Positions 12,606-42,763 of a stretch of 64,000 nt of DNA are shown one piece after another. The stretch comes from Octopus vulgaris. Lineage: Eukaryota. Position numbers and translations under genes: made by a program. Positions within the stretch are counted from its first letter, which is position 1; each line of letters opens with the position of its first letter. A model generated the notes under the pieces. That model saw nothing but the letters and a program-made list of their open reading frames with translations. It was not told where the DNA came from and ran no database searches. The stretch lies in contig OX597826.1 of the NCBI GenBank assembly GCA_951406725.2, positions 54,126,001-54,190,000 of the forward strand, in the 5' to 3' direction.

Positions 12606-13640
12606 CAGTGGTGGAAACCGTTCCACCAATCCGCTAACAACTGATTAGCGAAGCTAACTTTTCGTTTAGCGGATTAACGTTTTCGCTACCTTTGGAAACC
12701 GTCAGCGGACCAATTAGCTTCCACTAACTTTAAGTCCGCTAAAATTCATACGTTTGTTCCTGTCTGTTATGGGCATGTCTCGAAAAGTCCGTCAGGCACG
12801 CTATTGGCTGACTACGTGTACACGTGACAAGACGTGATTGGTCGACGCAGCAGCTGCTAGCTGAGCAGCATTGTGTAATTCTGCAGTTTTGAGTAGTGCT
12901 CACTTACGACGTTGTCATATTACAGTCTTACAGTGTTAGCGACAGCAGTGTATGTTATCGGTTTATCAAGTTATCGCTTATCGTTATAGAAGGTGAAGAC
13001 GTTTTTGTTCGGTCTGAGGATGATGGGCCTGCTGAGGAGTGTGCAACGGCTGTGGAGGAGGCAGATGTCACTCAGGTTGGGAGCCAGGAGTCTCAGGATT
13101 CTTGCCCCCACATGGAAGACTACTTTGTCCTTACGTCAAGGGATAAGAGGAACACCAAAATCCTGTACGTCCGGTGCATCATGTGCCAGCCCAAGGAGAT
13201 CACAATCAAGGGACAAACGGCGAGCCTCTGCAACTTAAAGTTGCATGTCAAGAGGAAACACTCAGCGCATGCCATCCAGTTTGAGGAGAGGATCAAGGTC
13301 GGTTCTTCCTCTGGGAAACACAGACAATCTTCTGGTAGCATTGCCAGTAGCCAGTTGTCGCAGCCATGTGCAATGAAAGCACGTCAGCTCGGCATTGGTG
13401 AGGCGATTGCCCAAACTGCAGTCACTGGCGTCTGACAGTCTATGGTGGACAGAAGGATTGTAGACCTGTTTGTCGACAACATGTTATCGCTGCATGTAGT
13501 GGAGTCCCCTACCTTGGTCAGCCTAATCAAGACGCTGAACCTCAGCAAGACTTCGATGTCTTGCCGTATTCTGGGCAGGATGATCTTGGTCAGCCATAAA
13601 CAGCTGGTGGGGTATCTTACAAGATATTTATAAATTAAAA
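12606..13640 (+). mobile_element. 5' part of a hAT DNA transposon with a BED zinc-finger transposase N-terminus (pseudogenised)
   Basis: Starts CAGTGGTGG, with repeated subterminal ccgctaa/ttagcgg motifs; GC-richer than host; ORF has YF...CIMC...TASLCNLKLHVKRKH (BED finger), an in-frame TGA at 13433-13435, then VDRRIVDLFVDNMLSLHVVESP (hAT DNA-binding region). No catalytic domain or right TIR seen. Confidence 0.8.
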
Positions 13641-18099: not shown

Positions 18100-19362
<1,263 letters not shown>

Positions 19363-25712: not shown

Positions 25713-26195
25713 TTGTCATCTATTTTGTTTCTTAAAGGCTAAACTTTCTCACAAAGATAGACATTTAGATGTAGTTAGATTCTTCTAGACATATTGACCG
25801 TGGGTGGATGAAAAGACAAAGTTTTGATGCGTTTTTAATTTAAAATATAAAAGGATTTAACTATGTAGTAAGACCGTTTTTCTGGTATGCTAAAAACCCT
25901 ACTGTTCTCATTGCCTCTGCTATAATTAAACGAATGCTTTCCAACAGACAGACACTTAGGTCATACGTTTAGTATCAAGTGTATTATAGGTTAAATCGAT
26001 CAGTATTTGACTGGTACATTTTTTCTTATTGATATCTCAGAATAATGAAAAGCGAAATTAGCAAATGATAGAATTTGAACCCAGAAAGTAAAAAGTGGAT
26101 ACAACTAATAGTATTATCAGAGTGACAAATACAATACAGTTGGATATTTTTAATGCTTTATTAGCAAGAACAACAAAACCGATAACGAATTCTGA

Positions 26196-26359
26196 CTAGA
26201 TTATGGTACATCGCATTTTCTCAAAAAAACTTAACTGTTCTTCCACTGGAACGGTGCTGAAATCATTTCTTGATCTGTAAAGTTTCTCTCGAACAGTTTC
26301 AAGAAGTCTCGAAACTGCTTGTGTCTGAGTTAATGTATGAAGTGGCGATTCTGTAAAAC
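26196..26359 (-). CDS. DHDH: DHDH-like terminal exon 7: GFTESPLHTLTQTQAVSRLLETVREKLYRSRNDFSTVPVEEQLSFFEKMRCTII*
   Basis: Acceptor ttttgcag in phase 1; GxxESP...LxxVR motif of the DHDH C-terminus; stop TAG at 26196-26198. Exon lengths 84+112+164+250+125+163+164 = 1062 nt give an uninterrupted 353-aa ORF. Confidence 0.88.
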
Positions 26360-26469
26360 CTGCAAAAATGAACGAGAAACTATAATCGGTTTTGTGTAGA
26401 AAATCAGCATGAAACTAAAAGAAAAAAAAATTGAAAGCATAGCAAGTAGAGATACGCTGTTTGGATTGA

Positions 26470-26895
26470 GTGGGGGAGAGAAGGGGGAGAGAAGGGGGAG
26501 AGAAGGGGGAGAGAAGGGGGGATAGAGAGAGAAGTGGGGGATAGAGAGAGAAGTGGGGGATAGAGAGAAGGGGGGATAGAGAGAAGGGGGGATAGAGAGA
26601 AGGGGGGGATAGAGAGAAGGGGGGGATAGAGAGAAGGGGGGATAGAGAGAAGGGGGGATAGAGAGAAGGGGGGATAGAGAGAAGGGGGATAGAGAGAGGG
26701 GGGATAGAGAGAGGGGGGATAGAGAGAGGGGGGATAGAGAGAGGGGGGATAGAGAGAGGGGGGATAGAGAGAGGGGAGGATAGAGAGAGGGGGAATAGAG
26801 AGAGGGGGAATAGAGAGAGGGGGAATAGAGAGAGGGGGAATAGAGAGAGGGGAGAGGGAAGAGAGAGAGAGAAAGAAAGAAAGAAAGGGAGAGAA
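26470..26895. repeat. Purine-rich minisatellite (GGGGGATAGAGAGA[A/G])n
   Basis: About 15-17-bp unit repeated more than 20 times, just upstream of the DHDH-like exon 7 acceptor. Confidence 0.95.
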
Positions 26896-27344
26896 AGATT
26901 CTGGGAGACATTTTAATAATAATAATATTGGTTTCAAATTTTGGCACAAGGTCAGCAATTTCAGTGACGGGATACTCAACTAGTACTTGTTTTATCAACT
27001 GAAAGGATGAAAGGCAAAGTCAAATTCGGCGGAATTTGAACTCAGAACGTGAAATGCCGCTGAGCATTTTGCCCTGTGTACAAACTAATCTGTCAGGTCG
27101 CCGCCTTAATAATATTGGCTTCAAATTTTGGCATAAGTTCCAGCAATTTCGTGGGCAGCGGCTAAGTCGATTACAGTATTTAACAGGTGCTTATTTTATC
27201 GAGCCCCGAAAGTATGTAGAGCAAAGTCGACCCTGGAGGAATTTGCTTTCAGAACATAAAGACAGAAGAATATTGCTGCTAAGCATTTTGTCCGACGCGT
27301 TAACCATTCAACCAGTTCGTCGCCTTTACAGTGCCAATGACAAT

Positions 27345-27760: not shown

Positions 27761-27923
27761 CTGCACGGATCCAATGACGTACGAGTTCGGCCTGACAAAT
27801 GAATCCCATGCTCTCGGGATAGTTAAATTCAACATCCGTCGATGGATTCGCCAAACCAAGCGGGATTTCAGTCTCTACTCTATTTATCGTTATTTTGTTG
27901 GTGGACCAAAGTGGCGGATGTAT
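27761..27923 (-). CDS. DHDH: DHDH-like exon 6 (163 nt): IHPPLWSTNKITINRVETEIPLGLANPSTDVEFNYPESMGFICQAELVRHWIRA
   Basis: Acceptor tttttcacag, donor gtgagt, phase 0->1; matches the DHDH PCWCPT...NFxNxxG.xYEAxHVxxCL segment. Confidence 0.9.
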
Positions 27924-31069: not shown

Positions 31070-31194
31070 ATAAATGCTTCCATTTGTTCCATAGATCCAG
31101 GCATCTGCTCTTCCTTTCAGTTTTGAATGACATGACAAAGAAGCTTTGCTACCATTCTGATACAGAAGGATAATGTTACAAGCTTCATCAATAC
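31070..31194 (-). CDS. DHDH: DHDH-like exon 5 (125 nt): GIDEACNIILLYQNGSKASLSCHSKLKGRADAWIYGTNGSIY
   Basis: Acceptor gacctaag, donor gtaagg, phase 1->0; matches DHDH GVDDTVTVLLQY...GTKG. Confidence 0.9.
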
Positions 31195-32923: not shown

Positions 32924-33173
32924 CGTTACTTGTAAAATCTCCAATAGTGAGGACGTGTTCAGGATTCTCTCGGAATACAAATTGTACCAACCACAAAAGA
33001 TACACGCCTATATTGGAAATACAGCCTCCGCTAATTCCTGTAGTGGATCTCTTTTCCTTATGCAGAACATCGAAAAATAGAGCAGCATCGAAATATTTTA
33101 CATCCCCTATGGTACCTTGATCAATTTCCTCTTTAATGTGTCTAAAAATCGGCAGGAAACACATCCAGATGCC
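32924..33173 (-). CDS. DHDH: DHDH-like exon 4 (250 nt): GIWMCFLPIFRHIKEEIDQGTIGDVKY...SGGCISNIGVYLLWLVQFVFRENPEHVLTIGDFTSN
   Basis: Acceptor cttttcatcag, donor gtaaat, phase 0->1; corresponds to the DHDH segments AIWTRFFP, GTLGD and GGALLDIGIY. Confidence 0.92.
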
Positions 33174-35708: not shown

Positions 35709-35872
35709 CTCCATGAAAAACACTTTATTTCGTCTTGCAAACTCTATCAGCGAAAAGCATTCCTCTGCTCTCAAAGCGCAAGGAGCTTCGCATAGAACGT
35801 GTTTGTTATATTGTATCATAAGATAACAATCTTCGTAACGGTCACCGACTGGAGATGATACATACACGACAT
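35709..35872 (-). CDS. DHDH: DHDH-like exon 3 (164 nt): DVVYVSSPVGDRYEDCYLMIQYNKHVLCEAPCALRAEECFSLIEFARRNKVFFME
   Basis: Acceptor tattccag, donor gtatgg, phase 1->0; KHVLCExP and FFME motifs of Gfo/Idh/MocA proteins. Confidence 0.92.
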
Positions 35873-37720: not shown

Positions 37721-37832
37721 CTATATTCTTATTTCTGACAAATTCTTCACAGCATCCGTAAGTATTTGGTATTTTAAACTTCTTCCCGAACTCACTGGCA
37801 GCTTTACTGTCATCACAACCAACAGCAACGAT
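37721..37832 (-). CDS. DHDH: DHDH-like exon 2 (112 nt): IVAVGCDDSKAASEFGKKFKIPNTYGCCEEFVRNKNI
   Basis: Acceptor ttttccaaccag, donor gtaaaa, phase 0->1; aligns by eye with DHDH [31 protein letters not shown]. Not in the ORF track. Confidence 0.9.
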
Positions 37833-42004: not shown

Positions 42005-42088
42005 TTCATGTAGAGACTGATCCATACAGCTCAAAGCTGTGCAAAAATCTTCTGCTATACATCCAGTGCCATATATTCCCCAACGCAT
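42005..42088 (-). CDS. DHDH: DHDH-like oxidoreductase (Gfo/Idh/MocA), coding exon 1: MRWGIYGTGCIAEDFCTALSCMDQSLHE
   Basis: ATG at 42088; Rossmann motif RWGIxGxGxIA matches the DHDH N-terminus; phase-0 donor GTAAGA at 42004. An upstream acceptor (tttacag, exon starts 42102) implies a further 5' exon that was not located. Confidence 0.9.
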
Positions 42089-42763
42089 TGTATAGTTTTT
42101 AACTGTAAAGGAACTAAAAGTAAAACGTAAATGGCGGTTGCAAGAATCGTAAGTCAATATGTCACAGGAGACTTGGTGACCTTTGCTTTTTATCGACAAA
42201 TTAAATTTAGATAGATGCTTATTGACGAGGTGGGGGGGGGCTTATATTGATTTATTGTGTGAATTGAATCGACGAGTCTATGATATAGACAACAAATGAA
42301 AAAAGGTATTAATGAGAAAAAAAGGAAACGTGCGCAGAACCTAGGAAAAAAAGAAAAATTTATTAAACTTTCAAATAAAAATGAAACTGTTTATTAAAAA
42401 CAAAATGAAGCAAGAATTTAATAAATTTTTCGGAAATGATGGTACATCTTGTAATGTGTATTTTGGTCAGGGAGATCGGTGTTTCTCATGAGAGAATGGA
42501 CGACAGGGGTGGGGGTCTGTAAAGATTGAAAAAAAAAAGAAAAGAAAAAGAGGGCGGACAAATTGCTATGTTTTATGAAATTAAATTGATTTAAAACCAT
42601 TTTGTAAACTTGTCCAGCACCAGATACAAACCCTCTTTGTCCTTTTAATAAAGAAAAAAAACCTAATGCTGAGGCGGAGGGGTGATGGTTAAAAAAGTGT
42701 ACACATACACACACATGTATACACACACGCATACATACATACATACATACATACATACATACA

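Follow-up and report, generated by a model that had tools for sequence, protein, structure and literature searches.

A CaaX-ending DHDH-fold gene and its transcripts

The window, the whole 64,000-nucleotide stretch of Octopus vulgaris DNA that was analysed, carries a gene with a DHDH fold whose product ends in a CaaX box. The gene lies on the minus strand and comprises seven coding exons; all introns are GT-AG, and the encoded protein of 353 amino acids is free of internal stops. Its parts are as follows.

42005..42088, minus strand: coding exon 1, with the ATG at 42088 and the GxGxxA fingerprint as GTGCIA
37721..37832, minus strand: coding exon 2, beta2 loop; the monkey Arg37 position is Asp35
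35709..35872, minus strand: coding exon 3; the His79 equivalent is Arg77 (35840-35838), and EKP has become EAP through Ala95 (35786-35784)
32924..33173, minus strand: coding exon 4; the Asp176 equivalent is Asn174 (33014-33012), and the Tyr180 equivalent, Tyr178, is retained
31070..31194, minus strand: coding exon 5, which encodes the dimer beta-sheet and is conserved best
27761..27923, minus strand: coding exon 6, joined to exon 7 in transcript contigs
26196..26359, minus strand: coding part of terminal exon 7, with the last helix, linker, CaaX box and TAG
26229..26276, minus strand: variable linker of low pLDDT, residues 328-343, sharing 2 of 16 positions with Argonauta
26211..26228, minus strand: conserved element FF[ED][KR] preceding the Cys (residues 344-349), a short helix predicted at low confidence
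26199..26210, minus strand: CaaX box Cys-Thr-Ile-Ile, of GGTase-I-type consensus
26143..26195, minus strand: 3' UTR of 53 nt, with AATAAA at 26162-26157 and the poly(A) site at 26143

The C-terminal reading of exon 7 is ...LETVREKLYRSRNDFSTVPVEEQLSFFEKMRCTII-stop, with the Cys codon at 26210-26208 and the TAG at 26198-26196. The original prediction that the spliced frame uses this terminal exon and ends in CTII-stop was confirmed by contigs from sequencing runs, of which eight of the 24 listed (X1-X8) were compared with the locus. In all five RNA-type runs (X1-X5, from four studies), contigs depart from the genome at 26364 and their loose ends map to exon 6 at 27766, with one base different in X4; the evidence for the exon 6-7 junction is thus loose-end mapping, and intron 6 holds a long simple repeat. 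Contigs from X1-X3 (two studies) pass through the stop and reach 26143, where those of X2 and X3 (one study) terminate in a poly(A) tail, 14 bases past the AATAAA. The RNA nature of X1-X5 was guessed, as it is not on record and no tissue is named, but their contigs show splicing and, in two runs, polyadenylation. The contigs of X6-X8 lack splicing and add no lineage: X6 and X7 are unchanged across the coding part and the stop, and X8 ends at 26213. An alternative terminal exon was rejected, since the stretch from 27760 to 20000 holds no further terminal exon of the ESP/ECP type and the contigs of the five RNA-type runs contain none.

Because an AG acceptor lies 14 nt upstream of the exon 1 ATG (window 42102-42109), and the two longest transcript contigs have the length of the seven exons plus ~100 nt upstream of the ATG, the data suggest a further, unlocated 5' exon. 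The protein may therefore be longer at its N-terminus, by at most 33 residues. It differs from RefSeq XP_029643826.1 (Octopus sinensis) at four residues; at each of them, the aligned O. vulgaris CAI9731947.1 is the same.

Several other features were observed in the window. Directly past the stop (26187-26194), X6 and X7 share a 28-nt insertion and a base change. Intron 6 holds a GA-rich tandem repeat of ~450 bases at 26460-26900, a short way upstream of the terminal acceptor, and intron 5 contains a broken Tc1/mariner transposase remnant (PF01498; 28500-29700, minus strand). A mariner-like remnant recognised by eye (18139-18970) and a BED-finger-like frame (12893-13435), both on the plus strand, gave no Pfam match.

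The C-terminal tail and its conservation in Argonauta

The Octopus tail extends 30 residues past R323, 18 more than the family median of 12 (IQR 10-13.5, n=139 of the 150 relatives listed). Monkey DHDH, of 334 amino acids, aligns to R324, and the Octopus tail is 20 residues longer; the predicted excess of roughly 15-20 residues over vertebrate DHDH therefore holds. The composition chance of a single C-x-[VIL]-[LFIMV] ending is ~0.0013 per protein, and dozens are expected in any proteome. A lone CaaX-like ending is thus unremarkable in a genome scan, and it is conservation in Argonauta that lifts this one above chance.

A HMMER scan of 1.84 billion representatives at 50% recovered an Argonauta hians orthologue, GAB1601661.1, of 354 residues and 44% identity. 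Its C-terminus reads FFDRIGCTLL against FFEKMRCTII in Octopus, with the Cys four from the stop in both. The CaaX box is therefore real and conserved between the two genera, and the Cys at -4 that had been expected in orthologues is present in the single orthologue recovered outside Octopus. Identity over the last ten residues is 40% (4/10; mean BLOSUM 3.3, mostly conservative exchanges), and over the linker only 12%, with a four-residue indel; 80 of the 320 ten-residue body windows score equally well as this end. When we simulated sequence change under LG, ignoring drift of the stop, both lineages retained C-x-[VIL]-[LFIMV] in 16-17% of simulations run at the body rate and in <1% of those at a linker-like rate.

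The body itself has changed quickly. Octopus-Argonauta identity is 45% for the CaaX pair versus 64-68% for four short-tailed paralogues, and the path length is 1.29 changes per site versus 0.30-0.44, a body evolving ~3-4x faster. In a tree built from 28 rows chosen among the HMMER matches, with tails trimmed, the CaaX pair is united with support of 100/100 and is sister to the short-tailed octopod copies, the octopod clade being supported at 100/99; a quick 64-row tree agrees. By this placement, and with DHDH as the top sequence and fold match, the gene is assigned to the DHDH lineage. The duplication that produced the CaaX copy is best read as predating the Octopus/Argonauta split.

The copy is known from two lineages, represented by three sequences of Octopus origin, 99% alike, and by one Argonauta gene model for which no transcript was seen. 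Beyond the Octopus cluster, Argonauta was the sole orthologue among the best 150 of 15,200 HMMER matches. Word-based searches with exon 4 against longer proteins, with the whole protein, and with residues 240-353 against shorter proteins found no orthologue in squid, cuttlefish or other octopodids, which is weak evidence that squid and cuttlefish lack one. The ESM Atlas returned generic family clusters only, and the last exon alone had no significant match in the PDB.

The two basic residues described in the original prediction are present before the box (K347 and R349), but they do not form a conserved polybasic signal. Within the ten residues before the Cys, they are balanced by two acidic residues in Octopus, and Argonauta has one basic and three acidic residues. 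The charge 10-20 residues before the Cys is net neutral to acidic. A polybasic second membrane signal was therefore rejected, given the offsetting acidic residues and the acidic Argonauta tail near the Cys. A basic stretch does occur at the end of the last helix, 15-30 residues upstream, in both orthologues and more strongly in Argonauta. No second Cys lies near the CaaX box, and no transmembrane or signal segment is evident in the predicted fold. A second membrane signal is not needed for prenylation itself.

Both boxes follow the substrate rule of GGTase-I (Cys at -4, aliphatic a2, and L, F, I, M or V as X), with CTII in Octopus, where transcripts confirm the stop, and CTLL in Argonauta. In both predicted folds, a cytosolic protein carries the motif on an exposed, unstructured tail, at pLDDT <50 for Octopus 333-353 and Argonauta 333-344 and 350-354; these low values may reflect a shallow alignment there. 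A yeast screening study gives Caa[L/F/I/M/V] as the GGTase-I consensus (PMC11304957). In the same study, CTLL was recovered twice among Rho1 variants supporting growth without FTase, all retested hits of this screen supported growth, and CTII was absent from 94 sampled hits (PMC11304957). CTII was depleted in the accompanying Ydj1 screen, like the validated substrates CAIV and CTVL, and unmodified sequences were depleted as well (PMC11304957); this depletion is uninformative because it fits both canonical processing and no modification. The enzyme in these screens is that of yeast and not of a mollusc. Very probably, Cys350 receives a C20 lipid from GGTase-I, after which aaX is trimmed and the new end methylated.

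Active-site losses, fold and paralogues

Both orthologues depart from monkey DHDH (2o48) at three positions: His79 is replaced by Arg, Lys97 by Ala, so that EKP reads EAP, and Asp176 by Asn. Among the 139 other relatives (those of the 150 listed that remained as full-length once fragments and fusions were dropped by length), position 79 is His in all 139, position 97 is Lys in 135 and position 176 is Asp in 116. We take His79 to be an active-site residue of DHDH, an enzyme that uses NADP to oxidise trans-dihydrodiols and D-xylose. Both orthologues retain the GxGxx[G/A] fingerprint (GTGCIA in Octopus, GVGANA in Argonauta), Glu96 and Tyr180 (Tyr178 in both); the Arg37 position is Asp or Gly, and Trp125 is kept in Octopus and lost in Argonauta. 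When checked as catalytic residues, the EKP lysine, His79 and Asp176 were missing from both, and Tyr180 was present in both.

The GFOD1 paper names Lys and Tyr/His as the Gfo/Idh/MocA family's catalytic sites (PMC11612644), and a report on Pl-scyllo-inositol dehydrogenase states that K106A and D191A abolish activity, with the data not shown there (PMC5969746). Judging by its residues, the CaaX copy is quite likely to lack DHDH-type catalysis. Since the catalytic residues are missing despite its DHDH gene lineage, it should not, on sequence grounds, be classed as an active DHDH, and the database label of an ordinary dehydrogenase is probably wrong. With GxGxxA and the glutamate of EKP preserved, its Rossmann fold could still accommodate a dinucleotide.

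The protein has the two-domain Gfo/Idh/MocA architecture, a Rossmann domain at the N-terminus and an alpha/beta sheet domain at the C-terminus (PF01408, 63 bits with a cut-off of 24; PF22725, 63 bits with a cut-off of 27). Its predicted fold is intact, with pLDDT of 85.5 and 85.4 for the two orthologues, and DHDH 2o48 is the best fold match (TM 0.85-0.90, rmsd 2.1 A). The most conserved region is the sheet at 204-250, which is 65% identical between the orthologues and 51-54% identical to a canonical Argonauta paralogue; this C-terminal sheet is the dimer surface of the family, according to the GFOD1 paper (PMC11612644). A predicted heterodimer of the Argonauta CaaX copy and a paralogue scored 0.81 against 0.00 for the best control, with contact agreement of at least 95% and partner pLDDT of at least 86. 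Of 78 solved pairs, 51 attained the mark used for such scores, as did 2 of the 108 mismatched ones; in the calibration, close cousins did so in 10 of 12 cases. The score can therefore reflect likeness to solved DHDH-type homodimers and does not tell hetero- from homodimer, so the modelled complex points to a compatible surface and not to binding. Among the octopod copies, the interface is 45-55% identical versus 32-44% for the rest, a difference short of significance (p 0.12-0.23); for the CaaX copy against the octopod paralogue, the values are 45-48% and 32-39%. In 11 of 12 outgroup comparisons, the interface is less conserved than the rest. These identities hint at a shared constraint on the octopod dimer interface.

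Thirteen further DHDH copies lie on the same chromosome in two clusters (G000:C13:42.16-42.23 Mb and 64.50-64.71 Mb; L040-L065). No CaaX consensus ending occurs in the 13, nor in the 157 other retrieved relatives, three of which have an unrelated Cys at -4. The paralogues keep His79 in every case and vary elsewhere: Lys97 is Gln in four, Asp176 is Cys in six and Glu in two, and Tyr180 is Asn in two. Only one combines His, Lys, Asp and Tyr, and the designation of these copies as active is inferred from sequence. In an ink proteome, one short-tailed paralogue with Gln97 was detected, the sole DHDH copy among the supplementary entries covered (PMC10142993). The CaaX copy resembles the short-tailed octopod paralogues (including Argonauta GAB1601625.1) in forming their sister clade, in matching tblastn exon breaks and in sharing a contig with them in both genomes. 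The paralogues differ from it by tails of 10-17 residues without a Cys at -4, by the His79 of all 13 and by slower evolution.

Two other relatives were observed elsewhere in the octopus genome. A broken DHDH copy with stops and frame changes (G000:C8:27493215-27493949; L001, L016) spans several exon boundaries and is probably a processed pseudogene. A 435-codon open frame matching PF01408 (G000:C1:137.19 Mb; L003) is presumably a GFOD1/2 orthologue-like gene.

Candidate roles and relation to known systems

Overall, we consider it likely that the gene encodes a lipidated pseudoenzyme. The membrane-tethered, lipidated Gfo/Idh/MocA paralogue proposed in the original prediction is supported by the stop and the conserved CaaX box; on its active-site residues, the copy is probably a tethered pseudoenzyme rather than a tethered enzyme. 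As to its role, our leading explanation, held tentatively, is that a geranylgeranylated pseudoenzyme tethers or regulates soluble DHDH paralogues. Put more fully, and a shade more cautiously, the dead DHDH duplicate may serve as a lipid-anchored subunit that brings members of an expanded family of soluble, detoxifying DHDHs to membranes by forming heterodimers; both the lost catalysis and the gained anchor would have been fixed before the Octopus/Argonauta split. Given lipidation and inactivity, we slightly favour a soluble paralogue as the partner rather than only the protein itself or an unrelated one.

The proposed sequence of events would begin with a DHDH duplicate losing three active-site residues and gaining a CaaX box by a short extension of its last exon. 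GGTase-I would prenylate Cys350 and thereby anchor the copy; as it lacks a polybasic patch, its lipid and FF motif would direct it preferentially to ER/Golgi-type membranes or to a prenyl-binding partner. The retained beta-sheet would dimerise with the soluble DHDH paralogues, holding them at an internal membrane. If true, this would be a compact case of neofunctionalisation, in which the duplicate of a soluble dimeric enzyme became lipid-anchored and inactive; its scope so far is one animal lineage.

The lipidated pseudoenzyme might instead be a homodimeric scaffold, or an NAD(P) or metabolite sensor, that serves small GTPases or other unrelated membrane partners and not paralogues; we take Gal80 and GFOD1, which binds NKIRAS2, as models for such a role, which we judge rather unlikely here. 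It shares the lipidation and inactivity evidence with the proposal of paralogue tethering, the kept dimer sheet suits a homodimer equally well, and GxGxxA and Glu96 are preserved. GFOD1 itself is a homodimeric family pseudoenzyme with a small-GTPase partner (PMC11612644). However, the ~3-4x faster body of the CaaX copy is unlike the conserved GFOD1, and the higher identity of the interface toward the octopod paralogue, reversed in outgroups, weighs against unrelated partners in a suggestive, not significant, way. Closest to the original prediction, and improbable in our estimate, is a lipidated oxidoreductase that remains active with altered chemistry or substrate, for instance an anionic or lipid-soluble one held by Arg77, with Tyr178 as acid/base. 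The retained Tyr180, Glu96 and fingerprint fit such an enzyme, as do the identical Arg, Ala and Asn replacements fixed in both lineages, which suggest constraint; moreover, the paralogues themselves vary at Lys97 and Asp176, and the Gln97 copy is translated, as the ink proteome indicates (PMC10142993). Against it, three sites were lost at once, including a His invariant in the 139 listed relatives and in the 13 paralogues. Argonauta also lacks Trp125, the Arg37 position holds Asp or Gly, and a Lys-to-Ala change is reported to inactivate a family member (PMC5969746).

We give still less credence to a CaaX-like end that goes unused for prenylation, whether inherited by chance or serving another role, such as a folding-back or binding motif, on a soluble, relaxed duplicate. 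This would accord with the missing polybasic signal, with a conservation argument that comprises a single pairwise comparison and a 16-17% chance of retention at the body rate, and with the Cys-rich Octopus copy (16 Cys versus a family median of 7). Yet the Argonauta orthologue is not Cys-rich (8), the Cys stands exactly four from the stop although the adjoining linker has fallen to 12% identity with an indel, the box has changed by swaps of I and L that the consensus allows, and a yeast reporter accepts CTLL as a prenylation signal (PMC11304957).

A prenylated Gfo/Idh/MocA protein is apparently an undescribed combination. Our literature search, in which subscription papers and the slashed family name are poorly covered, found no description of cephalopod DHDH or of CaaX or prenylation together with DHDH or MocA. 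PMC9834058 deals with vertebrate DHDH, and the sole CaaX mention in the GFOD1 paper is that NKIRAS2 lacks one (PMC11612644). With GGTase-I CaaX proteins such as Rho1 (CVLL) and G-protein gamma subunits, the Octopus protein shares a C-x-aliphatic-[L/I] end on a flexible tail, but its carrier is a metabolic-enzyme fold without a polybasic patch or nearby second Cys. Human GFOD1/GFOD2 (PDB 8y7p) are similar in their Gfo/Idh/MocA fold, presumed non-catalytic state, dimeric form and plausible adaptor role; GFOD1 has lost cofactor binding and keeps both residues of its catalytic site, Arg94 and Tyr179, whereas the Octopus copy keeps the fingerprint and Glu and has lost the Lys (PMC11612644). Orthology to GFOD1/2 was rejected, as the match to 8y7p has an E-value of 1.9e-4 versus 1.6e-45 to DHDH and octopus has its own GFOD-like gene on C1. 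The nearest known relative is monkey DHDH (PDB 2o48; EC 1.3.1.20), the best sequence match, with which the Octopus copy shares Tyr180, Glu96, Trp125 and possibly, by prediction, a sheet-to-sheet dimer, and from which it differs by Arg for His79, Ala for Lys97, Asn for Asp176, Asp for Arg37 and the longer tail ending in a CaaX box.
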